DNA of 64,000 bases from Eukaryota sp. GEM-RC1 (GCA_040285855.1 JAUFOQ010000010.1:558001-622000); one strand, 5' to 3'. Counted from the stretch's first letter, positions 5,521 through 64,000 are shown. Translations and numbers: made by a program. Notes: generated by a model from the sequence alone, not told the origin.

Positions 5521-5537
5521 AGAAACCTTGGTTTCAA

Positions 5538-24415: not shown

Positions 24416-24607
24416 TTGAAGGTGAAATCGTTTGTTTCTACGGTTGGTCTAGGTAACAACTCAATTGATGATGAAGGCGCTATTGCAATTGCTGAAGCTT
24501 TGAAGGTAAATTCGTCTGTTTCTACGATTTATCTACATAGCAACTCAATTAACAGTCAAACACAACAGTCGTTAAAATCACTACACAAGAATAGAATTCA
24601 TTTCTAA
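24416..24607 (+). pseudogene. Headless LRR cassette A1 (1 module + cap)
   Basis: ORF start is an internal TTG (Leu); no in-frame ATG back to TGA at 24284. Confidence 0.75.
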
Positions 24608-32813: not shown

Positions 32814-33341
32814 TTGAAGGTGAATTCGTTTGTTTCTTCGATTTATCTATATAACAACTCAATTGGTCCTGAAGGTGCTATTGCAATTGCTGAATCTTTG
32901 AAGGTGAATTCGTCTGTTTCTACGATCGATCTGTATAACAACTCAATTGGTACTGAAGGCGCTATTGCAATTGCTGAAGCTTTGAAGGTGAATTCTTCAG
33001 TTTCTCAGATCGATCTACGTAACAACCCAATTGGTAATGAAGGCGCTATTGCAATTGCTGAAGCTTTGAAGGTGAATTCTTCAGTTTCTACGATCAATCT
33101 ATATAACAACTCAATTGGTACTGAAGGCGCTATTGCAATTGCTGAAGCTTTGAAGGTGAATTCTTCAGTTTCTACGATCAATCTGTATAACAACTCAATT
33201 GGTACTGAAGGCGCTATTGCAATTGCTGAAGCTTTGAAGGTGAATTCTTCAGTTTCTTCGATTTATCTACATAGCAACTCAATTAACAGTCAAACACAAC
33301 AGTCGTTAAAATCACTACACAAGAATAGAATTCATTTCTAA
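32814..33341 (+). pseudogene. Headless LRR cassette A7 (5 modules + cap)
   Basis: Open frame, no ATG. Confidence 0.75.
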
Positions 33342-33976
33342 AGATATTTTCCTCTGATATAAAGATCACCCCATTATAAGTCACACATAAACAAATATCA
33401 AAGCAGTTTAGCAGTCGATCATACACAGATTGATTTTCAGTTTTACCCGGTAATTAAGACTCGTCATATCGAAAAGTTCATTTGCTATTGTTTTCAACAA
33501 CACCACGTATTAATTGTTATCTGGAAATGATGTAACATACTACATGTTTCGAAATATTTCGAATCACCGACACATTGTCTCGTTGTTAACACGGTTGTAT
33601 TTTTTCTCAAAAAACAGCTTAATTGTCCATGAGTTGAGTGATGCTTTGATTATTCTTAGTGATTTATAAGATGTACAGTATCCTTTTGTATCTACTCCAA
33701 AGATATTTTAGTCATGGTAATTTATTAAATATTGGTCAAAATTAGGTTGTTCGTTAGATTCTGTTTTAGTGATCTGTGATTTAATTGGAAATCTTGTCAC
33801 ACAATTGTCCTAACATACAAAGTAGGTTTTTCTTTATCTTAAATTGAGTTTATTATCTAACATTATCTAAGCTTCTCTTTACTGGATATGGGTTCTATGA
33901 ACCGGCTAGCATTTCCAATTTCTATCTACATTACAACTCAACTGGTCCTGAAGGCGCTATTGCAATTGCTGAAGCT

Positions 33977-34336
33977 TTGAAGGTGAATTCGTTTGTTTCT
34001 TCGATTTATCTATATAACAACTCAATTGGTCCTGAAGGTGCTATTGCAATTGCTGAATCTTTGAAGGTGAATTCGTCTGTTTCTACGATCGATCTAAATT
34101 ACAACTCAATTGGTCCTGAAGGTGCTATTGCAATTGCTGAAGCTTTGAAGGTGAATTCTTCAGTTTCTCAGATCGATCTACGTAACAACCCAATTGGTAA
34201 TGAAGGCGCTATTGCAATTGCTGAAGCTTTGAAGGTGAATTCTTCAGTTTCTTCGATTTATCTACATAGCAACTCAATTAACAGTCAAACACAACAGTCG
34301 TTAAAATCACTACACAAGAATAGAATTCATTTCTAA
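33977..34336 (+). pseudogene. Headless LRR cassette A8 (3 modules + cap)
   Basis: Open frame, no ATG; same translation as A9. Confidence 0.75.
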
Positions 34337-34975
34337 AGATATTTTCCTCTGATATAAAGATCACCCCATTATAAGTCACACATAAACAAATATCAAAGCA
34401 GTTTAGCAGTCGATCATACACAGATTGATTTTCAGTTTTACCCGGTAATTAAGACTCGTCATATCGAAAAGTTCATTTGCTATTGTTTTCAACAACACCA
34501 CGTATTAATTGTTATCTGGAAATGATGTAACATTATACTACATGTTTCGAAATATTTCGAATCACCGACACATTGTCTCGTTGTTAACACGGTTGTATTT
34601 TTTCTCAAAAAACAGCTTAATTGTCCATGAGTTGAGTGATGCTTTGATTATTCTTAGTGATTTATAAGATGTACAGTATCCTTTTGTATCTACTCCAAAG
34701 ATATTTTAGTCATGGTAATTTATTAAATATTGGTCAAAATTAGGTTGTTCGTTAGATTCTGTTTTAGTGATCTGTGATTTAATTGGAAATCTTGTCACAC
34801 AATTGTCCTAACATACAAAGTAGGTTTTTTCTTTATCTTAAATTGAGTTTATTATCTAACATTATCTAAGCTTCTCTTTACTGGATATGGGTTCTATGAA
34901 CCGGCTAGCATTTCCGATTTCTATCTACATTACAACTCAACTGGTCCTGAAGGCGCTATTGCAATTGCTGAAGCT

Positions 34976-35335
34976 TTGAAGGTGAATTCGTTTGTTTCTT
35001 CGATTTATCTATATAACAACTCAATTGGTCCTGAAGGTGCTATTGCAATTGCTGAATCTTTGAAGGTGAATTCGTCTGTTTCTACGATCGATCTAAATTA
35101 CAACTCAATTGGTCCTGAAGGTGCTATTGCAATTGCTGAAGCTTTGAAGGTGAATTCTTCAGTTTCTCAGATCGATCTACGTAACAACCCAATTGGTAAT
35201 GAAGGCGCTATTGCAATTGCTGAAGCTTTGAAGGTGAATTCTTCAGTTTCTTCGATTTATCTACATAGCAACTCAATTAACAGTCAAACACAACAGTCGT
35301 TAAAATCACTACACAAGAATAGAATTCATTTCTAA
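34976..35335 (+). pseudogene. Headless LRR cassette A9 (3 modules + cap)
   Basis: Open frame, no ATG. Confidence 0.75.
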
Positions 35336-35972
35336 AGATATTTTCCTCTGATATAAAGATCACCCCATTATAAGTCACACATAAACAAATATCAAAGCAG
35401 TTTAGCAGTCGATCATACACAGATTGATTTTCAGTTTTACCCGGTAATTAAGACTCGTCATATCGAAAAGTTCATTTGCTATTGTTTTCAACAACACCAC
35501 GTATTAATTGGTATCTGGAAATGAAGTAACATTATTCTTTTGTTTTGAAATGATTCGAATCACCGACACAATGTCTCGTTATTAACACGGTTGTATTTTT
35601 TCTCAAAAAACAGCTTAATTGTCGTTATGTTGAGTGATGCTTTGATTATTCTTAGTGATTTATAAGATGTACAGTATCCTTTTGTATCTACTCCAAAGAT
35701 ATTTTAGTCATGGTAATTTATTAAATATTGGTCAAAATTAGGTTGTTCGTTAGATTCTGTTTTAGTGATCTGTGATTTAATTGGAAATCTTGTCACACAA
35801 TTGTCCTAACATACAAAGTAGGTTTTTGTTTATCTTAAATTGAGTTTATTATCTAACATTATCTAAGCTTCTCTTTACTGGATATGGGTTCTATGAACCG
35901 GCTAGCATTTCCGATTTCTATCTACATTACAACTCAACTGGTCCTGAAGGCGCTATTGCAATTGCTGAAGCT

Positions 35973-37170
35973 TTGAAGGTGAATTCGTGTGTTTCTACGA
36001 TTGTTCTAGGTAACAACTCAATTGGTCCTGAAGGCGCTATTGCAATTGCTGAAGCTTTGAAGGTGAATTCGTCTGTTTCTTCGATTTATCTATATAACAA
36101 CTCAATTGGTCCTGAAGGTGCTATTGCAATTGCTGAAGCTTTGAAGGTGAATTCGTCTGTTTCTACGATCGATCTATTTAGCAACTCAATTGGTAATGAA
36201 GGCGCTATTGCAATTGCTGAAGCTTTGAAGGTGAATTCGTCTGTTTCTTCGATTTATCTATATAACAACTCAATTGGTAATGAAGGTGCTATTGCAATTG
36301 CTGCAGCTTTGAAAGTGAATTCGTCTGTTTCTTCGATTTATCTACATAGCAACTCAATTGGTCCTGAAGGCGCTATTGCAATTGCTGAAGCTTTGAAGGT
36401 GAATTCGTCTGTTTCTTCGAATATCTATATAACAACTCAATTGGTAATGAAGGTGCTATTGCAATTGCTGCAGCTTTGAAAGTGAATTCGTCTGTTTCTT
36501 CGATTTATCTACATAGCAACTCAATTGGTCCTGAAGGCGCTATTGCAATTGCTGAAGCTTTGAAGGTGAATTCGTCTGTTTCTTCGAATATCTATATAAC
36601 AACTCAATTGGTAATGAAGGTGCTATTGCAATTGCTGCAGCTTTGAAAGTGAATTCGTCTGTTTCTTCGATTTATCTACATAGCAACTCAATTGGTCCTG
36701 AAGGCGCTATTGCAATTGCTGAAGCTTTGAAGGTGAATTCTTCAGTTTCTACGATCAATCTACATAGCAACTCAATTGGTCCTGAAGGTGCTATTGCAAT
36801 TGCTGAAGCTTTGAAGGTGAATTCTTCAGTTTCTACGATCAATCTACATAGCAACTCAATTGGTAATGAAGGCGCTATTGCAATTGCTGAAGCTTTGAAA
36901 GTGAATTCGTCTGTTTCTTCGATTTATCTACATAGCAACTCAATTGGTCCTGAAGGTGCTATTGCAATTGCTGAAGCTTTGAAGGTGAATTCGTCTGTTT
37001 CTTCGATTTATCTATATAACAACTCAATTGGTAATGAAGGTGCTATTGCAATTGCTGCAGCTTTGAAAGTGAATTCGTCTGTTTCTTCGATTTATCTACA
37101 TAGCAACTCAATTAACAGTCAAACACAACAGTCGTTAAAATCACTACACAAGAATAGAATTCATTTCTAA
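35973..37170 (+). pseudogene. Headless LRR cassette A10 (13 modules + cap) with two 1-nt deletions
   Basis: TCGAATATCTA instead of TCGATTTATCTA at ~36421 and ~36588. Confidence 0.8.
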
Positions 37171-37806
37171 AGATATTTTCCTCTGATATAAAGATCACCC
37201 CATTATAAGTCACACATAAACAAATATCAAAGCAGTTTAGCAGTCGATCATACACAGATTGATTTTCAGTTTTACCCGGTAATTAAGACTCGTCATATCG
37301 AAAGTTCATTTGCTATTGTTTTCAACAACACCACGTATTAATTGGTATCTGGAAATGAAGTAACATTATTCTTTTGTTTTGAAATGATTCGAATCACCGA
37401 CACAATGTCTCGTTATTAACACGGTTGTATTTTTTCTCAAAAAACAGCTTAATTGTCGTTATGTTGAGTGATGCTTTGATTATTCTTAGTGATTTATAAG
37501 ATGTACAGTATCCTTTTGTATCTACTCCAAAGATATTTTAGTCATGGTAATTTATTAAATATTGGTCAAAATTAGGTTGTTCGTTAGATTCTGTTTTAGT
37601 GATCTGTGATTTAATTGGAAATCTTGTCACACAATTGTCCTAACATACAAAGTAGGTTTTTGTTTATCTTAAATTGAGTTTATTATCTAACATTATCTAA
37701 GCTTCTCTTTACTGGATATGGGTTCTATGAACCGGCTAGCATTTCCGATTTCTATCTACATTACAACTCAACTGGTCCTGAAGGCGCTATTGCAATTGCT
37801 GAAGCT

Positions 37807-38670
37807 TTGAAGGTGAATTCGTTTGTTTCTACGATTGTTCTAGGTAACAACTCAATTGGTCCTGAAGGCGCTATTGCAATTGCTGAAGCTTTGAAGGTGA
37901 ATTCGTCTGTTTCTTCGATTTATCTATATAACAACTCAATTGGTCCTGAAGGTGCTATTGCAATTGCTGAAGCTTTGAAGGTGAATTCGTCTGTTTCTAC
38001 GATCGATCTATTTAGCAACTCAATTGGTAATGAAGGCGCTATTGCAATTGCTGAAGCTTTGAAGGTGAATTCGTCTGTTTCTTCGATTTATCTATATAAC
38101 AACTCAATTGGTAATGAAGGTGCTATTGCAATTGCTGCAGCTTTGAAAGTGAATTCGTCTGTTTCTTCGATTTATCTACATAGCAACTCAATTGGTCCTG
38201 AAGGCGCTATTGCAATTGCTGAAGCTTTGAAGGTGAATTCTTCAGTTTCTACGATCAATCTACATAGCAACTCAATTGGTCCTGAAGGTGCTATTGCAAT
38301 TGCTGAAGCTTTGAAAGTGAATTCGTCTGTTTCTTCGATTTATCTACATAGCAACTCAATTGGTCCTGAAGGTGCTATTGCAATTGCTGAAGCTTTGAAG
38401 GTGAATTCGTCTGTTTCTTCGATTTATCTACATAGCAACTCAATTGGTCCTGAAGGTGCTATTGCAATTGCTGAAGCTTTGAAGGTGAATTCGTCTGTTT
38501 CTTCGATTTATCTATATAACAACTCAATTGGTAATGAAGGTGCTATTGCAATTGCTGCAGCTTTAAAAGTGAATTCGTCTGTTTCTTCGATTTATCTACA
38601 TAGCAACTCAATTAACAGTCAAACGCAACAGTCGTTAAAATCACTACACAAGAATAGAATTCATTTCTAA
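37807..38670 (+). pseudogene. Headless LRR cassette A11 (9 modules + cap)
   Basis: Open frame, no ATG. Confidence 0.75.
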
Positions 38671-39307
38671 AGATATTTTCCTCTGATATAAAGATCACCC
38701 CATTATAAGTCACACATAAACAAATATCAAAGCAGTTTAGCAGTCGATCATACACAGATTGATTTTCAGTTTTACCCGGTAATTAAGACTCGTCATATCG
38801 AAAAGTTCATTTGCTATTGTTTTCAACAACACCACGTATTAATTGGTATCTGGAAATGAAGTAACATTATTCTTTTGTTTTGAAATGATTCGAATCACCG
38901 ACACAATGTCTCGTTATTAACACGGTTGTATTTTTTCTCAAAAAACAGCTTAATTGTCGTTATGTTGAGTGATGCTTTGATTATTCTTAGTGATTTATAA
39001 GATGTACAGTATCCTTTTGTATCTACTCCAAAGATATTTTAGTCATGGAAATTTATTAAATATTGGTCAAAATTAGGTTGTTCGTTAGATTCTGTTTTAG
39101 TGATCTGTGATTTAATTGGAAATCTTGTCACACAATTGTCCTAACATACAAAGTAGGTTTTTGTTTATCTTAAATTGAGTTTATTATCTAACATTATCTA
39201 AGCTTCTCTTTACTGGATATGGGTTCTATGAACCGGCTAGCATTTCCGATTTCTATCTACATTACAACTCAACTGGTCCTGAAGGCGCTATTGCAATTGC
39301 TGAAGCT

Positions 39308-40087
39308 TTGAAGGTGAATTCGTTTGTTTCTACGATTGTTCTAGGTAACAACTCAATTGGTCCTGAAGGCGCTATTGCAATTGCTGAAGCTTTGAAGGTG
39401 AATTCGTCTGTTTCTTCGATTTATCTATATAACAACTCAATTGGTCCTGAAGGTGCTATTGCAATTGCTGAAGCTTTGAAGGTGAATTCGTCTGTTTCTA
39501 CGATCGATCTATTTAGCAACTCAATTGGTAATGAAGGCGCTATTGCAATTGCTGAAGCTTTGAAAGTGAATTCGTCTGTTTCTTCGATTTATCTATATAA
39601 CAACTCAATTGGTAATGAAGGCGCTATTGCAATTGCTGAAGCTTTGAAAGTGAATTCTTCAGTTTCTACGATCAATCTACATAGCAACTCAATTGGTCCT
39701 GAAGGTGCTATTGCAATTGCTGAAGCTTTGAAGGTGAATTCTTCAGTTTCTACGATCAATCTACATAGCAACTCAATTGGTAATGAAGGCGCTATTGCAA
39801 TTGCTGAAGCTTTGAAAGTGAATTCGTCTGTTTCTTCGATTTATCTATATAACAACTCAATTGGTAATGAAGGCGCTATTGCAATTGCTGAAGCTTTGAA
39901 GGTGAATTCTTCAGTTTCTCAGATCGATCTACGTAACAACCCAATTGGTAATGAAGGCGCTATTGCAATTGCTGAAGCTTTGAAGGTGAATTCTTCAGTT
40001 TCTTCGATTTATCTACATAGCAACTCAATTAACAGTCAAACACAACAGTCGTTAAAATCACTACACAAGAATAGAATTCATTTCTAA
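39308..40087 (+). pseudogene. Headless LRR cassette A12 (8 modules + cap)
   Basis: Open frame, no ATG. Confidence 0.75.
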
Positions 40088-40724
40088 AGATATTTTCCTC
40101 AGATATAAAGATCACCCCATTATAAGTCACACATGAACAAATATCAAAGCAGTTTAGCAGTCGATCATACACAGATTGATTTTCAGTTTTACCCGGTAAT
40201 TAAGACTCGTCATATCGAAAAGTTCATTTGCTATTGTTTTCAACAACACCACGTATTAATTGTTATCTGGAAATGATGTAACATTATACTACATGTTTCG
40301 AAATATTTCGAATCACCGACACATTGTCTCGTTGTTAACACGGTTGTATTTTTTCTCAAAAAACAGCTTAATTGTCCATGAGTTGAGTGATGCTTTGATT
40401 ATTCTTAGTGATTTATAAGATGTACAGTATCCTTTTGTATCTACTCCAAAGATATTTTAGTCATGGTAATTTATTAAATATTGGTCAAAATTAGGTTGTT
40501 CGTTAGATTCTGTTTTAGTGATCTGTGATTTAATTGGAAATCTTGTCACACAATTGTCCTAACATACAAAGTAGGTTTTGTTTATCTTAAATTGAGTTTA
40601 TTATCTAACATTATCTAAGCTTCTCTTTACTGGATATGGGTTCTATGAACCGGCTAGCATTTCCGATTTCTATCTACATTACAACTCAACTGGTCCTGAA
40701 GGTGCTATTGCAATTGCTGAAGCT

Positions 40725-41924
40725 TTGAAGGTGAATTCTTCAGTTTCTACGATCAATCTACATAGCAACTCAATTGGTAATGAAGGCGCTATTGCAATTG
40801 CTGAAGCTTTGAAAGTGAATTCGTCTGTTTCTTCGATTTATCTACATAGCAACTCAATTGGTCCTGAAGGTGCTATTGCAATTGCTGAAGCTTTGAAGGT
40901 GAATTCTTCAGTTTCTACGATCAATCTACATAGCAACTCAATTGGTAATGAAGGCGCTATTGCAATTGCTGAAGCTTTGAAAGTGAATTCGTCTGTTTCT
41001 TCGATTTATCTATATAACAACTCAATTGGTAATGAAGGCGCTATTGCAATTGCTGCAGCTTTGAAGGTGAATTCTTCAGTTTCTACGATCAATCTATATA
41101 ACAACTCAATTGGTACTGAAGGCGCTATTGCAATTGCTGAAGCTTTGAAGGTGAATTCTTCAGTTTCTACGATCAATCTGTATAACAACTCAATTGGTAC
41201 TGAAGGCGCTATTGCAATTGCTGAAGCTTTGAAGGTGAATTCTTCAGTTTCTACGATCAATCTACATAGCAACTCAATTGGTAATGAAGGCGCTATTGCA
41301 ATTGCTGAAGCTTTGAAAGTGAATTCGTCTGTTTCTTCGATTTATCTATATAACAACTCAATTGGTAATGAAGGCGCTATTGCAATTGCTGCAGCTTTGA
41401 AGGTGAATTCTTCAGTTTCTACGATCAATCTATATAACAACTCAATTGGTAATGAAGGCGCTATTGCAATTGCTGCAGCTTTGAAGGTGAATTCTTCAGT
41501 TTCTACGATCAATCTATATAACAACTCAATTGGTAATGAAGGCGCTATTGCAATTGCTGCAGCTTTGAAGGTGAATTCTTCAGTTTCTACGATCAATCTA
41601 TATAACAACTCAATTGGTAATGAAGGCGCTATTGCAATTGCTGAAGCTTTGAAGCTGAATTCTTCAGTTTCTACGATCAATCTGTATATCAACTCAATTG
41701 GTAATGAAGGCGCTATTGCAATTGCTGAAGCTTTGAAGGTGAATTCTTCAGTTTCTCAGATCGATCTACGTAACAACCCAATTGGTAATGAAGGCGCTAT
41801 TGCAATTGCTGAAGCTTTGAAGGTGAATTCTTCAGTTTCTAAGATTTATCTAGATAACAACTCAATTAACAGTCAAACACAACAGTCGTTAAAATCACTA
41901 CACAAGAATAGAATTCGTTTCTAA
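40725..41924 (+). pseudogene. Headless LRR cassette A13 (13 modules + divergent cap)
   Basis: Open frame, no ATG; unique cap SKIYLDNN...NRIRF. Confidence 0.75.
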
Positions 41925-42540
41925 AGATATTTTCCTCTGATATAAAGATCACCCCATTATAAGTCACACATGAACAAATATCAATGCGGTTTAGCAGTTG
42001 ATCATACACAGATTGATTTTCAGTTTTACCCGGTAATTAAGACTCCTCATATCGAAAAGTTCATTTGCTATTGTTTTCAACATCACCACGTATTAATTGG
42101 TATCTGGAAATGATGTAACATTATACTACATGTTTCGAAATATTTCGAATCACCGACACATTGTCTCGTTGTTAACACGGTTGTATTTTTTCTCAAAAAA
42201 CAGCTTAATTGTCCTTGAGTTGAGTGATACTTTGATTATTCTCAGTGATCTATAAGATGTACAGTATCCTTTTGTATGTGTTCCATAGATATTTTAGTCA
42301 TGGTAATTTATTGAATATTGGTCAAAATTTGGTTATTCGTTAGATTCTATTTTAGTGATCTGTAATTTTATTGGAAATCTTGTCGCACAATTGTCTTAAC
42401 ATACAAAGTAGGTCTTTGCTTATCTTAAATTGAGTGTGTTATCTAACGTTATCTAAGCTTCTTTTTAATAGATTTGTGTTCTATAAACCGGCTAGAATTT
42501 CTGACTTCTATCTACATAACAACTCAATTGGTACTGAAGG

Positions 42541-42796
42541 CTTCCGTTGCACTGGATGCGACGTCAACAATTTTGGCAGTAAAGAGTGCTTGCAATGGAA
42601 GTTCGTATCCTTCATGGTTTGGACGGGGTGTGGATTCCAACGGTTTTTCAGTAATTCTTGAACTGCAGGGAGGTCGAGAAGTACCACGCCGTCGGATAGA
42701 AGTTGTTGTTTTAGTACTTCTTTCCATTAACAAAGTCAAATGATTGATTGTATAGTATTGATGGCAAATGACACAAGTTATTTCATGTTGCGTCAC
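42541..42796 (-). pseudogene. Truncated 5' fragment of an RRM-type gene
   Basis: PRPNHEGYELPLQALFTAKIV matches IRPGHEQYELPSEAPFTAEIV of the RRM-LRR genes; breaks at 42541. Confidence 0.65.
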
Positions 42797-49205: not shown

Positions 49206-49406
49206 CAAACAAAAGAAATGTGTGTGATTTGATGTGTTATCTTCTATTACTGCACAGGTTCGGGTTTAGGTTTCTAACCAAACCTTTTTAAACCAAACCA
49301 AACCAAAACCTTTTTTAATAAAACCAAACCAAACCAAAACCTTTAGCTTCAGAACCGAAGGAAAATGAATCACAATTAATTTCAAAAACCCTCTGTCTCT
49401 GATATA

Positions 49407-49481
49407 CAGTCAACACTGTTTATAGCGGGACTATATGTACCTACGCTATATAGAGTTTCACGCTATAGACAGTTTTTACTG
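49407..49481. mobile_element. 75-bp Tc1/mariner(pogo)-like MITE
   Basis: TIRs CAGTCAACACTGTTTATAGCG / CGCTATAGACAGTTTTTACTG (18/21); TA duplicated on both sides; empty site at 20881-20882 in copy 1. Confidence 0.9.
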
Positions 49482-50767: not shown

Positions 50768-52302
50768 ATGTCTCACTATCTCTGTGATATTTGTCATGAA
50801 ATTCTCAAGAATCCGGTAACTACTTGGTGTGGCCACACCTTTTGTATGTCGGATTTGCAGGAGTGGCTTGATTCTCATAACGGATGTCCGATCTGTCGAG
50901 CTGAAGTGGACAAGTCAAGGCTGTGTCCTAACTACAAGTTGAAAGAAGCTGTTGAAGCCTTTGTTGCTGGTCAAGGTGAGACTATTTGTTTTGAGTGTGA
51001 TGAAGCTGCTGCCACTTGTTATTGCGCAGAATGTGACGCCGATTTCTGTGACAAATGTTTTAACCCTGCTCATCGCCCTAAGGTGCTACGATCTCATGTT
51101 GCTGTCCCCCTAAATAAGAAGCATGCCTACCTTGTTCCCAAGTGCCCCAGCCACAGTATGAAGTCGTTAGAGTTGTTCTGCACCTTCTGCTCCGTTGCCC
51201 TTTGTTCCACGTGTGCTTTCCTTGGTGACCATGACCAACACAAAAGAAGTTGCTTCCCTTCAATGAAGGTCGAACCTCTGTTGAAAAGAATATCAACTCA
51301 ATTAATCAAGAGTTGTCGTTAGCCATTGAAAAAATATCTCAGTCAGCTGAAGCTGCTATCCAGCAAGCAACAAGTGGTTTTGTCCAACTCAAAGAAAGTC
51401 TGACTGTCCTGCTCCAAGAAACTATGTTGGACTCTGCTACCATTATGAATGACTTACAATCTGGGAAACCTGTCATGTTCAAGCCAAAGATCAGCGAAAA
51501 ATTCACTACCACCACTTCAACCCTTCTCAACAACCAATCTAATATCATCTCCTCTTTAAATGAAGAACTTTTCTCCATCCACTCCGATGCTTCTCGTCGT
51601 TTGACGTCTCTTTCCGTTGATTCGGAGTCTAGTGTTGCTTCTGCTAGGCTTCTAGAAGACCCTCCTTTACCAATCAAGAGCATTGAAAGTGTCTGCCCTG
51701 TACAACAAGTTGAAGAGAAGAAACTTGTTATTGATTGGAGCAAGCTTAGTTCTAAGTTGAAGAATTGTTATGATCAGATGGTGAGAAATGAGGTTTCTAC
51801 GATCAATCTATATAACAACTCAATTGGTCCTGAAGGCGCTATTGCAATTGCTGAAGCTTTGAAGGTGAATTCTTCAGTTTCTACGATCAATCTACATAAC
51901 AACTCAATTGGTCCTGAAGGCGCTATTGCAATTGCTGAAGCTTTGAAGGTGAATTCTTCACTTTCTAGAATCGATCTAGATGGCAACTTAATTGGTAATG
52001 AAGGCACTATTGCAATTGCCGAAGCTTTGAAGGTGAATTCTTCACTTTCTAGAATCGATCTAAATAACAACTCAATTGGTAATGAAGGCGCTATTGCAAT
52101 TGCTGAAGCTTTGAAGGTGAATTCGTCTGTTTCTACGATCAATCTAGGTAACAACTCAATTGGTAATGAAGGCGCTATTGCAATTGCTGAAGCTTTGAAG
52201 GTGAATTCGTCTGTTTCTTCGATTTATCTACATAGCAACTCAATTAACAGTCAAACACAACAGTCGTTAAAATCACTACACAAGAATAGAATTCATTTCT
52301 AA
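50768..52302 (+). CDS. TRIM-like RING/B-box/coiled-coil/LRR gene, copy 2 (5 modules + cap); frameshift near 51242
   Basis: ORFs 50768..51322 and 51250..52302 overlap in different frames, as in copy 1. Confidence 0.88.
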
Positions 52303-52940
52303 AGATATTTTCCTCTGATAGAAAGATCACCCCATTATAAGTCACACATAAACAAATATCAAAGCAGTTTAGCAGTCGATCATACACAGATTGATTTTCA
52401 GTTTTACCCGGTAATTAAGACTCGTCATATCGAAAAGTTCATTTGCTATTGTTTTCAACAACACCACGTATTAAATGGTATCTGGAAATGATGTAACATT
52501 ATACTACATGTTTTGAAATGATTCGAATCACCGACACAGTGTCTCGTTATTAACACGGTTGTATTTTTTCTCAAAAAACAGCTTAATTGTCCATGAGTTG
52601 AGTGATGCTTTGATTATTCTTAGTGATTTATAAGATGTACAGTATCCTTTTGTATCTACTCCAAAGATATTTTAGTCATGGTAATTTATTAAATATTGGT
52701 CAAAATTAGGTTGTTCGTTAGATTCTGTTTTAGTGATCTGTGATTTAATTGGAAATCTTGTCACACAATTGTCCTAACATACAAAGTAGGTTTTTGTTTA
52801 TCTTAAATTGAGTTTATTATCTAACATTATCTAAGCTTCTCTTTACTGGATATGGGTTCTATGAACCGGCTAGCATTTCCGATTTCTATCTACATTACAA
52901 CTCAACTGGTCCTGAAGGCGCTATTGCAATTGCTGAAGCT

Positions 52941-53804
52941 TTGAAGGTGAATTCGTCTGTTTTTTCGATCAATCTAGGTAACAACTCAATTGGTAATGAA
53001 GGCGCTATTGCAATTGCTGAAGCTTTGAAGGTGAATTCGTCTGTTTCTACGATCTATCTAGGTAACAACTCAATTGGTCCTGAAGGCGCTATTGCAATTG
53101 CTGAAGCTTTGAAGGTGAATTCGTCTGTTTCTACGATCAATCTAGGTAACAACTCAATTGGTAATGAAGGCGCTATTGCAATTGCTGAAGCTTTGAAGGT
53201 GAATTCTTCAGTTTCTACGATTTATCTACATTACAACTCAATTGGTCCTGAAGGCGCTACTGTAATTGCTGAAGCTTTGAAGGTGAATTCTTCACTTTCT
53301 AGAATCGATCTAGATGGCAACTTAATTGGTAATGAAGGCACTATTGCAATTGCCGAAGCTTTGAAGGTGAATTCTTCACTTTCTAGAATCGATCTAAATA
53401 ACAACTCAATTGGTAATGAAGGCGCTATTGCAATTGCTGAAGCTTTGAAGGTGAATTCGTCTGTTTTTTCGATCAATCTAGGTAACAACTCAATTGGTAA
53501 TGAAGGCGCTATTGCAATTGCTGAAGCTTTGAAGGTGAATTCGTCTGTTTCTACGATCTATCTACATAACAACTCAATTGGTCCTGAAGGCGCTATTGCA
53601 ATTGCTGAAGCTTTGAAGGTGAATTCGTCTGTTTCTACGATCAATCTAGGTAACAACTCAATTGGTAATGAAGGCGCTATTGCAATTGCTGAAGCTTTGA
53701 AGGTGAATTCGTCTGTTTCTTCGATTTATCTACATAGCAACTCAATTAACAGTCAAACACAACAGTCGTTAAAATCACTACACAAGAATAGAATTCATTT
53801 CTAA
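52941..53804 (+). pseudogene. Headless LRR cassette B1 (9 modules + cap)
   Basis: Open frame, no ATG; same translation as B4. Confidence 0.75.
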
Positions 53805-54442
53805 AGATATTTTCCTCTGATAGAAAGATCACCCCATTATAAGTCACACATAAACAAATATCAAAGCAGTTTAGCAGTCGATCATACACAGATTGATTTT
53901 CAGTTTTACCCGGTAATTAAGACTCGTCATATCGAAAAGTTCATTTGCTATTGTTTTCAACAACACCACGTATTAAATGGTATCTGGAAATGATGTAACA
54001 TTATACTACATGTTTTGAAATGATTCGAATCACCGACACAGTGTCTCGTTATTAACACGGTTGTATTTTTTCTCAAAAAACAGCTTAATTGTCCATGAGT
54101 TGAGTGATGCTTTGATTATTCTTAGTGATTTATAAGATGTACAGTATCCTTTTGTATCTACTCCAAAGATATTTTAGTCATGGTAATTTATTAAATATTG
54201 GTCAAAATTAGGTTGTTCGTTAGATTCTGTTTTAGTGATCTGTGATTTAATTGGAAATCTTGTCACACAATTGTCCTAACATACAAAGTAGGTTTTTGTT
54301 TATCTTAAATTGAGTTTATTATCTAACATTATCTAAGCTTCTCTTTACTGGATATGGGTTCTATGAACCGGCTAGCATTTCCGATTTCTATCTACATTAC
54401 AACTCAACTGGTCCTGAAGGCGCTATTGCAATTGCTGAAGCT

Positions 54443-54802
54443 TTGAAGGTGAATTCGTCTGTTTTTTCGATCAATCTAGGTAACAACTCAATTGGTAATG
54501 AAGGCGCTATTGCAATTGCTGAAGCTTTGAAGGTGAATTCGTCTGTTTCTACGATCTATCTAGGTAACAACTCAATTGGTCCTGAAGGCGCTATTGCAAT
54601 TGCTGAAGCTTTGAAGGTGAATTCGTCTGTTTCTACGATCAATCTAGGTAACAACTCAATTGGTAATGAAGGCGCTATTGCAATTGCTGAAGCTTTGAAG
54701 GTGAATTCGTCTGTTTCTTCGATTTATCTACATAGCAACTCAATTAACAGTCAAACACAACAGTCGTTAAAATCACTACACAAGAATAGAATTCATTTCT
54801 AA
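54443..54802 (+). pseudogene. Headless LRR cassette B2 (3 modules + cap)
   Basis: Open frame, no ATG. Confidence 0.75.
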
Positions 54803-55440
54803 AGATATTTTCCTCTGATAGAAAGATCACCCCATTATAAGTCACACATAAACAAATATCAAAGCAGTTTAGCAGTCGATCATACACAGATTGATTTTCA
54901 GTTTTACCCGGTAATTAAGACTCGTCATATCGAAAAGTTCATTTGCTATTGTTTTCAACAACACCACGTATTAAATGGTATCTGGAAATGATGTAACATT
55001 ATACTACATGTTTTGAAATGATTCGAATCACCGACACAATGTCTCGTTATTAACACGGTTGTATTTTTTCTCAAAAAACAGCTTAATTGTCCATGAGTTG
55101 AGTGATGCTTTGATTATTCTTAGTGATTTATAAGATGTACAGTATCCTTTTGTATCTACTCCAAAGATATTTTAGTCATGGTAATTTATTAAATATTGGT
55201 CAAAATTAGGTTGTTCGTTAGATTCTGTTTTAGTGATCTGTGATTTAATTGGAAATCTTGTCACACAATTGTCCTAACATACAAAGTAGGTTTTTGTTTA
55301 TCTTAAATTGAGTTTATTATCTAACATTATCTAAGCTTCTCTTTACTGGATATGGGTTCTATGAACCGGCTAGCATTTCCGATTTCTATCTACATTACAA
55401 CTCAACTGGTCCTGAAGGCGCTATTGCAATTGCTGAAGCT

Positions 55441-55800
55441 TTGAAGGTGAATTCGTCTGTTTTTTTGATCAATCTAGGTAACAACTCAATTGGTAATGAA
55501 GGCGCTATTGCAATTGCTGAAGCTTTGAAGGTGAATTCGTCTGTTTCTACGATCTATCTAGGTAACAACTCAATTGGTCCTGAAGGCGCTATTGCAATTG
55601 CTGAAGCTTTGAAGGTGAATTCGTCTGTTTCTACGATCAATCTAGGTAACAACTCAATTGGTAATGAAGGCGCTATTGCAATTGCTGAAGCTTTGAAGGT
55701 GAATTCGTCTGTTTCTTCGATTTATCTACATAGCAACTCAATTAACAGTCAAACACAACAGTCGTTAAAATCACTACACAAGAATAGAATTCATTTCTAA
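55441..55800 (+). pseudogene. Headless LRR cassette B3 (3 modules + cap)
   Basis: Open frame, no ATG. Confidence 0.75.
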
Positions 55801-56438
55801 AGATATTTTCCTCTGATAGAAAGATCACCCCATTATAAGTCACACATAAACAAATATCAAAGCAGTTTAGCAGTCGATCATACACAGATTGATTTTCAGT
55901 TTTACCCGGTAATTAAGACTCGTCATATCGAAAAGTTCATTTGCTATTGTTTTCAACAACACCACGTATTAAATGGTATCTGGAAATGATGTAACATTAT
56001 ACTACATGTTTTGAAATGATTCGAATCACCGACACAGTGTCTCGTTATTAACACGGTTGTATTTTTTCTCAAAAAACAGCTTAATTGTCCATGAGTTGAG
56101 TGATGCTTTGATTATTCTTAGTGATTTATAAGATGTACAGTATCCTTTTGTATCTACTCCAAAGATATTTTAGTCATGGTAATTTATTAAATATTGGTCA
56201 AAATTAGGTTGTTCGTTAGATTCTGTTTTAGTGATCTGTGATTTAATTGGAAATCTTGTCACACAATTGTCCTAACATACAAAGTAGGTTTTTGTTTATC
56301 TTAAATTGAGTTTATTATCTAACATTATCTAAGCTTCTCTTTACTGGATATGGGTTCTATGAACCGGCTAGCATTTCCGATTTCTATCTACATTACAACT
56401 CAACTGGTCCTGAAGGCGCTATTGCAATTGCTGAAGCT

Positions 56439-57302
56439 TTGAAGGTGAATTCGTCTGTTTTTTCGATCAATCTAGGTAACAACTCAATTGGTAATGAAGG
56501 CGCTATTGCAATTGCTGAAGCTTTGAAGGTGAATTCGTCTGTTTCTACGATCTATCTAGGTAACAACTCAATTGGTCCTGAAGGCGCTATTGCAATTGCT
56601 GAAGCTTTGAAGGTGAATTCGTCTGTTTCTACGATCAATCTAGGTAACAACTCAATTGGTAATGAAGGCGCTATTGCAATTGCTGAAGCTTTGAAGGTGA
56701 ATTCTTCAGTTTCTACGATTTATCTACATTACAACTCAATTGGTCCTGAAGGCGCTACTGTAATTGCTGAAGCTTTGAAGGTGAATTCTTCACTTTCTAG
56801 AATCGATCTAGATGGCAACTTAATTGGTAATGAAGGCACTATTGCAATTGCCGAAGCTTTGAAGGTGAATTCTTCACTTTCTAGAATCGATCTAAATAAC
56901 AACTCAATTGGTAATGAAGGCGCTATTGCAATTGCTGAAGCTTTGAAGGTGAATTCGTCTGTTTTTTCGATCAATCTAGGTAACAACTCAATTGGTAATG
57001 AAGGCGCTATTGCAATTGCTGAAGCTTTGAAGGTGAATTCGTCTGTTTCTACGATCTATCTACATAACAACTCAATTGGTCCTGAAGGCGCTATTGCAAT
57101 TGCTGAAGCTTTGAAGGTGAATTCGTCTGTTTCTACGATCAATCTAGGTAACAACTCAATTGGTAATGAAGGCGCTATTGCAATTGCTGAAGCTTTGAAG
57201 GTGAATTCGTCTGTTTCTTCGATTTATCTACATAGCAACTCAATTAACAGTCAAACACAACAGTCGTTAAAATCACTACACAAGAATAGAATTCATTTCT
57301 AA
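56439..57302 (+). pseudogene. Headless LRR cassette B4 (9 modules + cap)
   Basis: Open frame, no ATG. Confidence 0.75.
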
Positions 57303-57940
57303 AGATATTTTCCTCTGATAGAAAGATCACCCCATTATAAGTCACACATAAACAAATATCAAAGCAGTTTAGCAGTCGATCATACACAGATTGATTTTCA
57401 GTTTTACCCGGTAATTAAGACTCGTCATATCGAAAAGTTCATTTGCTATTGTTTTCAACAACACCACGTATTAAATGGTATCTGGAAATGATGTAACATT
57501 ATACTACATGTTTTGAAATGATTCGAATCACCGACACAGTGTCTCGTTATTAACACGGTTGTATTTTTTCTCAAAAAACAGCTTAATTGTCCATGAGTTG
57601 AGTGATGCTTTGATTATTCTTAGTGATTTATAAGATGTACAGTATCCTTTTGTATCTACTCCAAAGATATTTTAGTCATGGTAATTTATTAAATATTGGT
57701 CAAAATTAGGTTGTTCGTTAGATTCTGTTTTAGTGATCTGTGATTTAATTGGAAATCTTGTCACACAATTGTCCTAACATACAAAGTAGGTTTTTGTTTA
57801 TCTTAAATTGAGTTTATTATCTAACATTATCTAAGCTTCTCTTTACTGGATATGGGTTCTATGAACCGGCTAGCATTTCCGATTTCTATCTACATTACAA
57901 CTCAACTGGTCCTGAAGGCGCTATTGCAATTGCTGAAGCT

Positions 57941-58300
57941 TTGAAGGTGAATTCGTCTGTTTTTTCGATCAATCTAGGTAACAACTCAATTGGTAATGAA
58001 GGCGCTATTGCAATTGCTGAAGCTTTGAAGGTGAATTCGTCTGTTTCTACGATCTATCTAGGTAACAACTCAATTGGTCCTGAAGGCGCTATTGCAATTG
58101 CTGAAGCTTTGAAGGTGAATTCGTCTGTTTCTACGATCAATCTAGGTAACAACTCAATTGGTAATGAAGGCGCTATTGCAATTGCTGAAGCTTTGAAGGT
58201 GAATTCGTCTGTTTCTTCGATTTATCTACATAGCAACTCAATTAACAGTCAAACACAACAGTCGTTAAAATCACTACACAAGAATAGAATTCATTTCTAA
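57941..58300 (+). pseudogene. Headless LRR cassette B5 (3 modules + cap)
   Basis: Open frame, no ATG. Confidence 0.75.
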
Positions 58301-58938
58301 AGATATTTTCCTCTGATAGAAAGATCACCCCATTATAAGTCACACATAAACAAATATCAAAGCAGTTTAGCAGTCGATCATACACAGATTGATTTTCAGT
58401 TTTACCCGGTAATTAAGACTCGTCATATCGAAAAGTTCATTTGCTATTGTTTTCAACAACACCACGTATTAAATGGTATCTGGAAATGATGTAACATTAT
58501 ACTACATGTTTTGAAATGATTCGAATCACCGACACAATGTCTCGTTATTAACACGGTTGTATTTTTTCTCAAAAAACAGCTTAATTGTCCATGAGTTGAG
58601 TGATGCTTTGATTATTCTTAGTGATTTATAAGATGTACAGTATCCTTTTGTATCTACTCCAAAGATATTTTAGTCATGGTAATTTATTAAATATTGGTCA
58701 AAATTAGGTTGTTCGTTAGATTCTGTTTTAGTGATCTGTGATTTAATTGGAAATCTTGTCACACAATTGTCCTAACATACAAAGTAGGTTTTTGTTTATC
58801 TTAAATTGAGTTTATTATCTAACATTATCTAAGCTTCTCTTTACTGGATATGGGTTCTATGAACCGGCTAGCATTTCCGATTTCTATCTACATTACAACT
58901 CAACTGGTCCTGAAGGCGCTATTGCAATTGCTGAAGCT

Positions 58939-60054
58939 TTGAAGGTGAATTCGTCTGTTTTTTCGATCAATCTAGGTAACAACTCAATTGGTAATGAAGG
59001 CGCTATTGCAATTGCTGAAGCTTTGAAGGTGAATTCGTCTGTTTCTACGATCTATCTAGGTAACAACTCAATTGGTCCTGAAGGCGCTATTGCAATTGCT
59101 GAAGCTTTGAAGGTGAATTCGTCTGTTTCTACGATCAATCTAGGTAACAACTCAATTGGTAATGAAGGCGCTATTGCAATTGCTGAAGCTTTGAAGGTGA
59201 ATTCGTCTGTTTCTTCGATTTATCTACATAGCAACTCAATTGGTACTGAAGGCGCTATTGCAATTGCTGAAGCTTTGAAGGTGAATTCTTCAGTTTCTAC
59301 GATCAATCTACATAACAACTCAATTGGTCCTGAAGGCGCTATTGCAATTGCTGAAGCTTTGAAGGTGAATTCTTCAGTTTCTACGATTTATCTACATTAC
59401 AACTCAATTGGTCCTGAAGGCGCTACTGTAATTGCTGAAGCTTTGAAGGTGAATTCTTCACTTTCTAGAATCGATCTAGATGGCAACTTAATTGGTAATG
59501 AAGGCACTATTGCAATTGCCGAAGCTTTGAAGGTGAATTCTTCACTTTCTAGAATCGATCTAAATAACAACTCAATTGGTAATGAAGGCGCTATTGCAAT
59601 TGCTGAAGCTTTGAAGGTGAATTCGTCTGTTTTTTCGATCAATCTAGGTAACAACTCAATTGGTAATGAAGGCGCTATTGCAATTGCTGAAGCTTTGAAG
59701 GTGAATTCGTCTGTTTCTACGATCTATCTACATAACAACTCAATTGGTCCTGAAGGCGCTATTGCAATTGCTGAAGCTTTGAAGGTGAATTCTTCAGTTT
59801 CTACGATTTATCTACATTACAACTCAATTGGTCCTGAAGGCGCTATTGCAATTGCTGAAGCTTTGAAGGTGAATTCGTCTGTTTCTACGATCAATCTAGG
59901 TAACAACTCAATTGGTAATGAAGGCGCTATTGCAATTGCTGAAGCTTTGAAGGTGAATTCGTCTGTTTCTTCGATTTATCTACATAGCAACTCAATTAAC
60001 AGTCAAACACAACAGTCGTTAAAATCACTACACAAGAATAGAATTCATTTCTAA
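58939..60054 (+). pseudogene. Headless LRR cassette B6 (12 modules + cap)
   Basis: Open frame, no ATG; looks chimeric. Confidence 0.75.
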
Positions 60055-60692
60055 AGATATTTTCCTCTGATAGAAAGATCACCCCATTATAAGTCACACA
60101 TAAACAAATATCAAAGCAGTTTAGCAGTCGATCATACACAGATTGATTTTCAGTTTTACCCGGTAATTAAGACTCGTCATATCGAAAAGTTCATTTGCTA
60201 TTGTTTTCAACAACACCACGTATTAAATGGTATCTGGAAATGATGTAACATTATACTACATGTTTTGAAATGATTCGAATCACCGACACAGTGTCTCGTT
60301 ATTAACACGGTTGTATTTTTTCTCAAAAAACAGCTTAATTGTCCATGAGTTGAGTGATGCTTTGATTATTCTTAGTGATTTATAAGATGTACAGTATCCT
60401 TTTGTATCTACTCCAAAGATATTTTAGTCATGGTAATTTATTAAATATTGGTCAAAATTAGGTTGTTCGTTAGATTCTGTTTTAGTGATCTGTGATTTAA
60501 TTGGAAATCTTGTCACACAATTGTCCTAACATACAAAGTAGGTTTTTGTTTATCTTAAATTGAGTTTATTATCTAACATTATCTAAGCTTCTCTTTACTG
60601 GATATGGGTTCTATGAACCGGCTAGCATTTCCGATTTCTATCTACATTACAACTCAACTGGTCCTGAAGGCGCTATTGCAATTGCTGAAGCT

Positions 60693-60968
60693 TTGAAGGT
60701 GAATTCGTCTGTTTTTTCGATCAATCTAGGTAACAACTCAATTGGTCCTGAAGGCGCTATTGCAATTGCTGAAGCTTTGAAGGTGAATTCGTCTGTTTCT
60801 ACGATCAATCTAGGTAACAACTCAATTGGTAATGAAGGCGCTATTGCAATTGCTGAAGCTTTGAAGGTGAATTCGTCTGTTTCTTCGATTTATCTACATA
60901 GCAACTCAATTAACAGTCAAACACAACAGTCGTTAAAATCACTACACAAGAATAGAATTCATTTCTAA
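60693..60968 (+). pseudogene. Headless LRR cassette B7 (2 modules + cap)
   Basis: Open frame, no ATG. Confidence 0.75.
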
Positions 60969-61606
60969 AGATATTTTCCTCTGATAGAAAGATCACCCCA
61001 TTATAAGTCACACATAAACAAATATCAAAGCAGTTTAGCAGTCGATCATACACAGATTGATTTTCAGTTTTACCCGGTAATTAAGACTCGTCATATCGAA
61101 AAGTTCATTTGCTATTGTTTTCAACAACACCACGTATTAAATGGTATCTGGAAGTGATGTAACATTATACTACATGTTTTGAAATGATTCGAATCACCGA
61201 CACAATGTCTCGTTATTAACACGGTTGTATTTTTTCTCAAAAAACAGCTTAATTGTCCATGAGTTGAGTGATGCTTTGATTATTCTTAGTGATTTATAAG
61301 ATGTACAGTATCCTTTTGTATCTACTCCAAAGATATTTTAGTCATGGTAATTTATTAAATATTGGTCAAAATTAGGTTGTTCGTTAGATTCTGTTTTAGT
61401 GATCTGTGATTTAATTGGAAATCTTGTCACACAATTGTCCTAACATACAAAGTAGGTTTTTGTTTATCTTAAATTGAGTTTATTATCTAACATTATCTAA
61501 GCTTCTCTTTACTGGATATGGGTTCTATGAACCGGCTAGCATTTCCGATTTCTATCTACATTACAACTCAACTGGTCCTGAAGGCGCTATTGCAATTGCT
61601 GAAGCT

Positions 61607-61966
61607 TTGAAGGTGAATTCGTCTGTTTTTTCGATCAATCTAGGTAACAACTCAATTGGTAATGAAGGCGCTATTGCAATTGCTGAAGCTTTGAAGGTGA
61701 ATTCGTCTGTTTCTACGATCTATCTAGGTAACAACTCAATTGGTCCTGAAGGCGCTATTGCAATTGCTGAAGCTTTGAAGGTGAATTCGTCTGTTTCTAC
61801 GATCAATCTAGGTAACAACTCAATTGGTAATGAAGGCGCTATTGCAATTGCTGAAGCTTTGAAGGTGAATTCGTCTGTTTCTTCGATTTATCTACATAGC
61901 AACTCAATTAACAGTCAAACACAACAGTCGTTAAAATCACTACACAAGAATAGAATTCATTTCTAA
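61607..61966 (+). pseudogene. Headless LRR cassette B8 (3 modules + cap)
   Basis: Open frame, no ATG. Confidence 0.75.
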
Positions 61967-62604
61967 AGATATTTTCCTCTGATAGAAAGATCACCCCATT
62001 ATAAGTCACACATAAACAAATATCAAAGCAGTTTAGCAGTCGATCATACACAGATTGATTTTCAGTTTTACCCGGTAATTAAGACTCGTCATATCGAAAA
62101 GTTCATTTGCTATTGTTTTCAACTACACCACGTATTAAATGGTATCTGGAAATGATGTAACATTATACTACATGTTTTGAAATGATTCGAATCACCGACA
62201 CAGTGTCTCGTTATTAACACGGTTGTATTTTTTCTCAAAAAACAGCTTAATTGTCCATGAGTTGAGTGATGCTTTGATTATTCTTAGTGATTTATAAGAT
62301 GTACAGTATCCTTTTGTATCTACTCCAAAGATATTTTAGTCATGGTAATTTATTAAATATTGGTCAAAATTAGGTTGTTCGTTAGATTCTGTTTTAGTGA
62401 TCTGTGATTTAATTGGAAATCTTGTCACACAATTGTCCTAACATACAAAGTAGGTTTTTGTTTATCTTAAATTGAGTTTATTATCTAACATTATCTAAGC
62501 TTCTCTTTACTGGATATGGGTTCTATGAACCGGCTAGCATTTCCGATTTCTATCTACATTACAACTCAACTGGTCCTGAAGGCGCTATTGCAATTGCTGA
62601 AGCT

Positions 62605-63132
62605 TTGAAGGAGAATTCGTCTGTTTTTTCGATCAATCTAGGTAACAACTCAATTGGTAATGAAGGCGCTATTGCAATTGCTGAAGCTTTGAAGGTGAAT
62701 TCGTCTGTTTCTACGATCAATCTAGGTAACAACTCAATTGGTAATGAAGGCGCTATTGCAATTGCTGAAGCTTTGAAGGTGAATTCGTCTGTTTTTTCGA
62801 TCAATCTAGGTAACAACTCAATTGGTAATGAAGGCGCTATTGCAATTGCTGAAGCTTTGAAGGTGAATTCGTCTGTTTCTACGATCTATCTAGGTAACAA
62901 CTCAATTGGTCCTGAAGGCGCTATTGCAATTGCTGAAGCTTTGAAGGTGAATTCGTCTGTTTCTACGATCAATCTAGGTAACAACTCAATTGGTAATGAA
63001 GGCGCTATTGCAATTGCTGAAGCTTTGAAGGTGAATTCGTCTGTTTCTTCGATTTATCTACATAGCAACTCAATTAACAGTCAAACACAACAGTCGTTAA
63101 AATCACTACACAAGAATAGAATTCATTTCTAA
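62605..63132 (+). pseudogene. Headless LRR cassette B9 (5 modules + cap)
   Basis: Open frame, no ATG. Confidence 0.75.
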
Positions 63133-63770
63133 AGATATTTTCCTCTGATAGAAAGATCACCCCATTATAAGTCACACATAAACAAATATCAAAGCAGTTT
63201 AGCAGTCGATCATACACAGATTGATTTTCAGTTTTACCCGGTAATTAAGACTCGTCATATCGAAAAGTTCATTTGCTATTGTTTTCAACAACACCACGTA
63301 TTAAATGGTATCTGGAAATGATGTAACATTATACTACATGTTTTGAAATGATTCGAATCACCGACACAGTGTCTCGTTATTAACACGGTTGTATTTTTTC
63401 TCAAAAAACAGCTTAATTGTCCATGAGTTGAGTGATGCTTTGATTATTCTTAGTGATTTATAAGATGTACAGTATCCTTTTGTATCTACTCCAAAGATAT
63501 TTTAGTCATGGTAATTTATTAAATATTGGTCAAAATTAGGTTGTTCGTTAGATTCTGTTTTAGTGATCTGTGATTTAATTGGAAATCTTGTCACACAATT
63601 GTCCTAACATACAAAGTAGGTTTTTGTTTATCTTAAATTGAGTTTATTATCTAACATTATCTAAGCTTCTCTTTACTGGATATGGGTTCTATGAACCGGC
63701 TAGCATTTCCGATTTCTATCTACATTACAACTCAACTGGTCCTGAAGGCGCTATTGCAATTGCTGAAGCT

Positions 63771-64000
63771 TTGAAGGTGAATTCGTCTGTTTTTTCGATC
63801 AATCTAGGTAACAACTCAATTGGTAATGAAGGCGCTATTGCAATTGCTGAAGCTTTGAAGGTGAATTCGTCTGTTTCTACGATCTATCTAGGTAACAACT
63901 CAATTGGTAATGAAGGCGCTATTGCAATTGCTGAAGCTTTGAAGGTGAATTCGTCTGTTTCTACGATCTATCTACATAACAACTCAATTGGTCCTGAAGG
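63771..64000 (+). pseudogene. Headless LRR cassette B10 (partial, cut by the window end)
   Basis: Same spacer and modules. Confidence 0.7.

Follow-up and report, generated by a model that had tools for sequence, protein, structure and literature searches.

Tandem headless 3′ ends behind two copies of a predicted TRIM-type leucine-rich repeat gene in a eukaryotic genome segment

Introduction

Parasite surface antigens and the receptors of lampreys provide known examples of head genes followed by silent cassettes, and vlsE, vlhA and immunoglobulin pseudogene conversion are further analogues. For the VLRs, an incomplete germline gene is described that is assembled somatically from cassettes of 1 to 3 leucine-rich repeat (LRR) modules, which lie in both orientations over ~2 Mb, with CDA1/2 implicated in the process (PMC3308329). 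In the HNWD/NWD family of Podospora anserina (het-d and het-e), near-identical repeats are reported to be exchanged within and between members and to diversify at four exposed positions per repeat, and the repeats of pseudogenes remain intact and enlarge the pool (PMC1805685). Proteins of the TRIM/RBCC class are defined by a RING domain, B-boxes, a coiled coil and a variable C-terminal binding domain (PMC5758549). Here, we describe a 64,000-nucleotide (nt) stretch of eukaryotic DNA (GCA_040285855.1, JAUFOQ010000010.1:558001-622000; the whole stretch is called the window) in which a head-and-cassette layout stands behind a predicted intracellular ubiquitin ligase, since a gene that appears to be of the TRIM type and to end in LRRs is followed, at two loci, by tandem copies of its own 3′ end.

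The reading we prefer, at a probability of roughly 55%, is that the second locus is a recent duplicate of the first, that the tandem 3′ ends owe their amplification and reshuffling to in-register unequal crossing-over together with ectopic gene conversion, and that the cassettes form a passive reservoir of modules.

Results

The window has a GC content of ~35% and contains many genes encoding RI-type LRRs of 28 amino acids (aa). Two of these genes, hereafter the heads, start at positions 22,161 (head 1) and 50,768 (head 2), an offset of 28,607 bp. Each is followed on the same strand by a tandem series of cassettes that lack the head part and consist of a leader, 84-nt modules (28 aa each), the gene's own tail and stop codon, and a spacer of ~640 bp. 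Thirteen cassettes were found behind head 1 and at least 10 behind head 2, the latter count being a lower bound because the tenth cassette is cut by the end of the window; the whole parse comprised 186 module anchors and 24 tails. A first-pass annotation had proposed that the architecture recurs 28.6 kb downstream, and the parse bore this out. In array 2, the cassette stops lie at 53804, 54802, 55800, 57302, 58300, 60054, 60968, 61966 and 63132, and a higher-order duplication of about 3.5 to 3.9 kb was seen at 99.3% identity; blocks of 2.3 to 3.9 kb are duplicated cassette pairs.

Both heads matched Pfam RING families and two zf-B_box stretches at the N terminus, and the ratio of nonsynonymous to synonymous polymorphism (pN/pS) in the RING/B-box part is 0.13 for head 2 versus head 1. 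Over residues 39 to 210, the N-terminal part matched TRIM28 in the PDB (E 1e-11), and the structural matches of the LRR part were NOD2/RI-type repeats. The model of P0001, an intact relative (related proteins carry P numbers), places helices at residues 164 to 220, 223 to 232 and 244 to 281 and leaves the linker disordered, with predicted local distance difference test (pLDDT) scores of <50 in the zinc-finger part, mostly 54 to 77 in the long helices and mostly >85 in the LRRs. Judged from sequence, the head is a TRIM-type RING–B-box 1–B-box 2–coiled-coil–LRR gene and a predicted ubiquitin ligase: the RING domain and two B-boxes that define TRIM/RBCC proteins are recognizable at the N terminus, and the model predicts the coiled coil and, after it, a C-terminal binding domain. 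A Pfam scan of the head found no NACHT/NB-ARC core, and the gene does not appear to be a NOD-like receptor (NLR), although its repeats evolve in an HNWD-like manner.

Locus 2 appears to be a very recent duplicate, because its flank shows 0 substitutions in 926 bp. The breakpoint at 48,353 corresponds to 19,829, and no homology extends to its left; since the segment starts inside the neighboring LRR gene and truncates it, locus 2 would be the derived copy. Divergence between the copies rises toward the LRRs, from 0/926 bp through 13/1502 (0.87%), 1.9% and 2.9% to 5.5% in the linker. The RING/B-box part, which had been called nearly identical between the loci, is indeed 98.1% identical (9 substitutions in 480 bp), but the upstream flank is closer still and the linker much less so.

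All 10 spacers of locus 2 are 674 nt long and on average 0.87 substitutions apart, and those of locus 1 fall into several types with a mean of 10.7 substitutions (S13 left out; spacers carry S numbers). The locus-2 spacer S14 differs from S0, the spacer behind head 1, at 1 position in the 5′ half and 11 in the 3′ half; against S8, the differences are 8 in the 5′ half and 1 in the 3′ half, and this 3′ half is only 1 to 2 differences away from S2, S8 and S12. Two locus-1 spacer types are combined in the hybrid spacer of locus 2, which suggests that the first spacer crossed over with a later one and that the array then re-expanded. Of the locus-specific spacer polymorphisms expected from the first pass, one GATAG/GATAT difference is fixed (10/10 versus 14/14 spacers), but it is the sole fixed difference in 78 variable columns. 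The spacers of array 1 do not form one clade, and those of locus 2 nest among the array-1 types. The idea that the architecture had been kept or rebuilt twice is better replaced by a single origin: the array likely arose once, was copied, collapsed at locus 2 to one hybrid spacer and was re-expanded there.

The modules gave a different picture. Counted over 159 full internal modules, SRIDLDGN and SRIDLNNN each occur once in head 2, three times in array 2 and never in locus 1; FSINLGNN is confined to array 2 (n = 13), and SQIDLRNN (10 copies), STIDLNYN (7) and STIDLFSN (3) are confined to array 1, all as previously claimed. Only 1 of 48 nucleotide haplotypes is common to both loci, and the predicted grouping of modules by locus was recovered, the observed separation being reached in 0 of 2,000 shuffles of unit labels, a figure that is no independent P value because the units are related by duplication. 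The loci are nevertheless not sealed from each other, because STINLGNN and the locus-2 terminal module have nucleotide-identical copies in array-1 cassettes 3 and 6. Identical copies of head-2 modules were present in array 2 for 4 of 5 modules, and those of head-1 modules in array 1 for 3 of 6 versus 0 of 6 in array 2; the flanking LRR cassettes are gene-specific. The proposal that each array expanded or was homogenized with its own head after the duplication holds in part: array 2 is young, as its spacers show, and the heads resemble their own arrays, but 9 of the 12 module types of array 1 and 5 of the 10 of array 2 are missing from their own head. The SRIDL modules are 7 to 9 nt away from every locus-1 module, too large a distance for a duplicate whose flank has no substitutions, so they were likely imported or pre-existing rather than mutated in place. 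Other family members are the likely source, and paralogues P0006 and P0012 contain similar SRIDL blocks.

All modules are in register at 84 nt, and none of the 183 non-frameshifted modules contains a stop codon, which is no sign of selection because the arrays are too young. Recombination among modules is frequent, with four gametes at 29 of 66 biallelic pairs in locus 1 and 22 of 120 in locus 2. At locus 2, the modules are about fifty-fold more diverse than the spacers (7.1% versus 0.13%), and module diversity is 7 to 9% in the two head/array loci versus 31 to 43% in the window's five older LRR genes. At strand positions 18, 20, 22 and 23, nearly all variation is nonsynonymous, with a pN/pS ratio of ~6 versus 0.38 elsewhere, which hints at diversifying selection on binding-surface residues but is a descriptive figure from pairwise, non-independent comparisons at positions picked after the module variation had been seen. 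Positions 18, 20 and 22 fall on the β-strand in the structural model, by which the variation is concentrated at exposed β-strand residues. Since the four positions are variable in paralogue heads also, expressed genes are the probable place where this diversity was shaped, and the cassettes would store it.

Several features point to how the units were rearranged. FSINLG, usually the first module of a cassette, is found also inside long cassettes, which look as if they were fusions through spacer deletion, and the edge units (cassette 1 and S13) are diverged, as expected under unequal crossing-over. The heads themselves appear to be mosaics of paralogues: the head-2 linker agrees with P0012 at 6 of 7 diagnostic residues, and two B-box sites occur in all four combinations among heads 1 and 2, P0010 and P0011. 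Near-identical DNA repeats, recombination among them and exchange between loci, which are features of HNWD-like evolution, can be recognized at the sequence level. Mutagenesis by a diversity-generating retroelement was considered and rejected, as the consensus base is A in 10 of 33 variable columns versus 24 of 84 overall, and 14 A columns are invariant.

The cassettes are likely silent and unpurged, because framework changes in first modules and a frameshifted module have spread among them. The changes S15F, S17F and N13K are found only in cassettes (0 in 90 paralogue modules), with 11 of 12 S15F and 10 of 14 S17F in first modules, and the module with a 1-nt deletion is present twice, that is, it was duplicated with its lesion. 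Cassette leaders have no in-frame ATG before the modules and contain an in-frame TGA. An in-register crossover anywhere in the modules preserves the frame and the tail. The head-2 module string can be derived from cassette 20 through two in-register deletions, and the terminal module of head 1 is identical to that of the distant cassette 10, not to those of its neighbors.

At the end of array 1 (42500-42790), a ~45-bp LRR relic is joined to an inverted N-terminal fragment of a neighboring LRR family, and this relic may have seeded the array or be the scar of a deletion. The terminal spacer (42274-42411) carries intron-like signals as well as an upstream ATG, which matches the start of P0019 and P0029-31, and a small LRR gene at this place was possibly ancestral to the cassette.

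The closest named proteins (74 to 97% identity) are from Eukaryota sp. GEM-RC1 (Skoliomonas), the relative referred to below, in which the family is multi-copy. Headless leader-LRR-tail models with an S13-type leader were found under five accessions in the relative, and P0012 and P0018 resemble tandem 3′ parts with other breakpoints; these protein models, read outside their DNA context, hint that 3′-end amplification may have recurred in the family. P0017, P0027 and P0032 were left out of the cassette tally because, like P0013/P0015, they may represent the second halves of heads with a frameshift. P0003 joins the same RBCC head to a non-LRR C terminus, by which the family would also swap whole binding domains. 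Beyond the family, a coiled-coil/linker homologue search among long proteins gave 0 of 1,566 candidates, and a P0001 search of representatives gave a best 150 dominated by LRRs, with a weak RING-like match in 1 of 145 new proteins and a full RBCC in none; a metagenome scan (3 loci with RING-only matches at 41 to 46%) was uninformative and was not used. The ESM Atlas returned B-box-plus-LRR clusters as leads only (score 0.86), and the B-box/LRR combination itself may not be unique. In the literature, at the level of titles and the starts of abstracts, no description of a protist TRIM-LRR cassette array was found, with coverage of non-metazoan TRIMs being thin. Skoliomonas is presented as a free-living anaerobic metamonad in its genome preprint, in the main text of which the word "leucine" occurs 0 times (10.1101/2023.05.03.539051).

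The rest of the window contains a second LRR family (1739-3118, 5520-6956, 7826-9949, 18681-20742 and 43603-44683) with diverged modules, no arrays and an N-terminal region that has no Pfam match. Membrane genes of the YhhN family (313-816) and the DUF1295 family (15349-16150, interrupted by a one-base shift in a T run) are also present, as is a 749-aa open reading frame (ORF) at 11770-14019 with a Cys-rich N terminus, degenerate LRR-like repeats and no Pfam match. Between the loci (44840-46010) lies a decayed hAT transposon with terminal inverted repeats (Dimer_Tnp_hAT, E 5.5e-7). The features of the two loci are collected in Table 1.

Table 1. Positions of the main features of the two head-and-cassette loci in the window
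Feature	Position	Strand	Remarks
Head 1	22161..23778	+	Architecture as in head 2; seven LRR strands; two 1-nt frameshifts in A runs
Array 1	24330..42412	+	13 headless cassettes with 3-22 LRR strands; cassette 1 degenerate; cassette 10 with two identical frameshifted 83-nt modules
Terminal spacer S13	41925..42545	+	~7% diverged; leader type of headless models P0019/P0029-31; ends in the ~45-bp LRR relic
Left end of duplicated segment	48353..49265	-	Truncated copy of the 5′ half of the neighboring LRR gene (original 18,681-20,742); 0 substitutions in 926 bp
75-bp insertion resembling a miniature inverted-repeat transposable element	49405..49481	.	TA duplication; 21-bp terminal inverted repeats (17/21), CAGT-ended; locus 2 only, single copy in window
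Head 2, RING + B-box 1 + B-box 2	50768..51247	+	Pfam zf-C3HC4 family, zf-B_box (2 stretches), E ~1e-10 to 1e-11
A run with 1-nt frameshift relative to intact relatives	51242..51245	+	Same in head 1 (22,635-22,638), P0010 and P0011
Head 2, predicted coiled coil + linker	51247..51792	+	P0001 model; TRIM28-region match in PDB
Head 2, six 28-aa RI-type LRRs, capping tail, stop	51793..52302	+	
First spacer + leader of array 2	52303..52900	+	5′ half resembles post-head-1 spacer, 3′ half S2-S8/S12; in-frame TGA, no in-frame ATG before modules
Array 2	52855..64000	+	At least 10 headless cassettes with 4-14 LRR strands each; runs off window

Discussion

The preferred reading, a recent duplicate of a TRIM-type gene with passively amplified 3′ ends, would proceed as follows. 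An LRR-bearing fragment ~640 bp beyond the stop codon may have paired with the gene's own LRRs and so seeded a tandem unit. Crossing-over within the constant stretch of the modules would then change module number, fuse cassettes and remove spacers, and after the duplication the array of locus 2 would have collapsed to one hybrid spacer, taken up family modules and re-expanded. Crossovers of the same kind between head and cassette could give the head a new binding surface while keeping the frame. From what is known of such families, the LRRs are predicted to bind a variable and probably foreign target, which the RING domain would ubiquitinate.

Some observations weigh against this reading. The relation between head 2 and cassette 20 fits a transfer in either direction, from cassette to head or from head to cassette. 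Exact copies in the 28 paralogue proteins examined were found for only 3 of 20 module blocks of the window, so that no donor of the imported modules was found among these proteins. The five older LRR genes of the window have no arrays, so that generic LRR instability alone is insufficient. Finally, both heads are frameshifted and, if the shift is real, the LRR end is not made.

A selected or programmed cassette library, copied or looped at a high rate into an expressed head as in a VLR- or msg-like diversifier of an intracellular receptor-ligase, is the alternative that survives best, and we consider it unlikely. The head and silent-cassette layout at two loci, the absence of most (array 1) or half (array 2) of the cassette module types from their own heads, the quick rebuilding of the array after duplication and the five headless gene models of the relative would all suit it, as would the number of distinct strand strings computed to be reachable by one loop-out event, which is 382 at locus 1 and at least 126 at locus 2. 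But the heads are already complete at the 3′ end, with 6 to 7 LRRs, tail and stop, and so differ from the incomplete germline gene of the VLR type. The cassettes are whole tandem 3′ ends with the higher-order duplications typical of unequal crossing-over, and amplification extended to first-module changes that look deleterious and to a module with a frameshift. No recombinase, deaminase or reverse transcriptase was found among the 20 window ORFs scanned, and no junction element is present other than the module itself. If a library of this kind did exist, which is improbable, a free-living protist would possess an anticipatory immune diversifier that swaps LRR ends from a per-locus cassette library, a unicellular, intracellular counterpart of the lamprey VLRs.

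The frameshift raises the further alternative that the heads are dead genes yielding a RING–B-box stub and that the arrays are neutral tandem junk at pseudogenes, a receptor gene 3′ end turning into satellite DNA; we regard this too as improbable. Just past B-box 2, at a feature that the first-pass annotation does not mention, each head has one base fewer in an A run than its intact relatives P0001, P0002, P0006, P0012 and P0033, whose frame from RBCC to LRR is unbroken. That the identical shift is found in both heads, P0010 and P0011, that truncated members exist (P0005 and P0009) and that homopolymer problems are otherwise few at locus 2, with its spacers of uniform length, would speak for a real lesion. 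Likewise, runs seldom differ in length between the copies (2 of 14 five-base and 0 of 35 four-base runs, in a tally that omits 2 of 11 single-base indels, one G2/G3 and one outside runs, and in which one three-base run was flagged by adjacency only). In opposition to this, the substitutions between heads past the shift fit the LRR frame (5 synonymous, 1 nonsynonymous) over the stub frame (1 and 5), and pN/pS is 0.36 over the rest. The shift is common to four different downstream haplotypes and lies within a run, where 10 of the 11 single-base indels between copies occur, and a T run likewise breaks the frame of the single-copy DUF1295 gene. A precedent for homopolymer misassembly in a gene of this sort has been described (PMC12222747), and the frameshift is rather probably an error of sequence or assembly. 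Two further explanations were rejected: a 20-nt GT-AG intron, since the intact relatives encode that stretch, and programmed -1 frameshifting, since a slippery heptamer, the X-XXY-YYZ motif of such frameshifting, is absent at the site.

It is very unlikely that the second locus is an assembly artifact in which allelic haplotypes were joined in tandem, or that cassette number was inflated. Immune loci are known in which divergent alleles have identical flanks, and the 100% identity of the flank, the homopolymer errors in the consensus and the highly similar repeats of array 2 could be so understood. However, no repeat is shared on the left of the junction at 48,352/3, which falls within a gene, and between the loci stand 5.8 kb of unique DNA with the hAT remnant and a further LRR gene. 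The units also carry private and hierarchically shared variants, and the family is multi-copy in the relative, one contig of which has three more close heads in its annotation.

Expression of the cassettes, either by alternative splicing as 3′ exons of the head or from a spacer ATG as small independent LRR genes, is highly improbable: models P0019/P0029-31 begin at spacer MYSILL codons with a hydrophobic N terminus, S13 has GTATGT and TAAC..AG signals and each module a possible AAG|GT donor, but in the 24 leader matches listed an in-frame TGA separates the MYSILL ATG from the modules wherever the alignment reaches, GTATGT reads GTATCT in two other spacers checked, each unit has its own stop, and the P0019 models are predictions only.

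On the reading of passive amplification after a recent duplication, the two loci, of different age and within 42 kb, offer a before-and-after view of how an array is copied, collapses, takes up modules and re-expands, and the second shows one rebuilt with a new repertoire very quickly. The arrays may be by-products or a first step toward programmed receptor diversification.

The comparison with known systems is instructive in this respect. With the Podospora HNWD genes, as these are described, the loci share the concerted evolution of repeats (PMC1805685), but there the repeats are WD40 in NACHT genes and pseudogenes, whereas here they are RI-type LRRs on a predicted TRIM protein, with a repertoire particular to each locus and with headless 3′ ends in tandem immediately after the gene. 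As in the reported lamprey and hagfish VLR loci, locus-specific LRR cassettes flank the gene (PMC3308329); unlike there, the head is complete and the cassettes are tandem, same-strand 3′ ends, known here from one sequence. The Ectocarpus ROCO LRR exons and the 90-bp LRR exons of Tetrahymena offer a parallel in intra- and intergenic LRR shuffling and in the suggestion that non-coding units act as a reservoir (PMC3341825, PMC6564038), but have one repeat per exon, whereas the modules here are intronless and the spares lie 3′ of the stop. Measured against the usual TRIM/RBCC proteins, the gene is set apart by a C-terminal domain that is a predicted RI/NOD2-like LRR solenoid. With the account of Pneumocystis msg-I, with its upstream conserved sequence (UCS) and conserved recombination junction element (CRJE), the layout shares one expressed head with headless 3′ genes, recombination in a short shared sequence and family mosaics (PMC5676039); the product there is a parasite surface antigen, encoded subtelomerically and joined at one dedicated junction, and here it is a predicted cytosolic ligase in which any module could serve as a crossover site.

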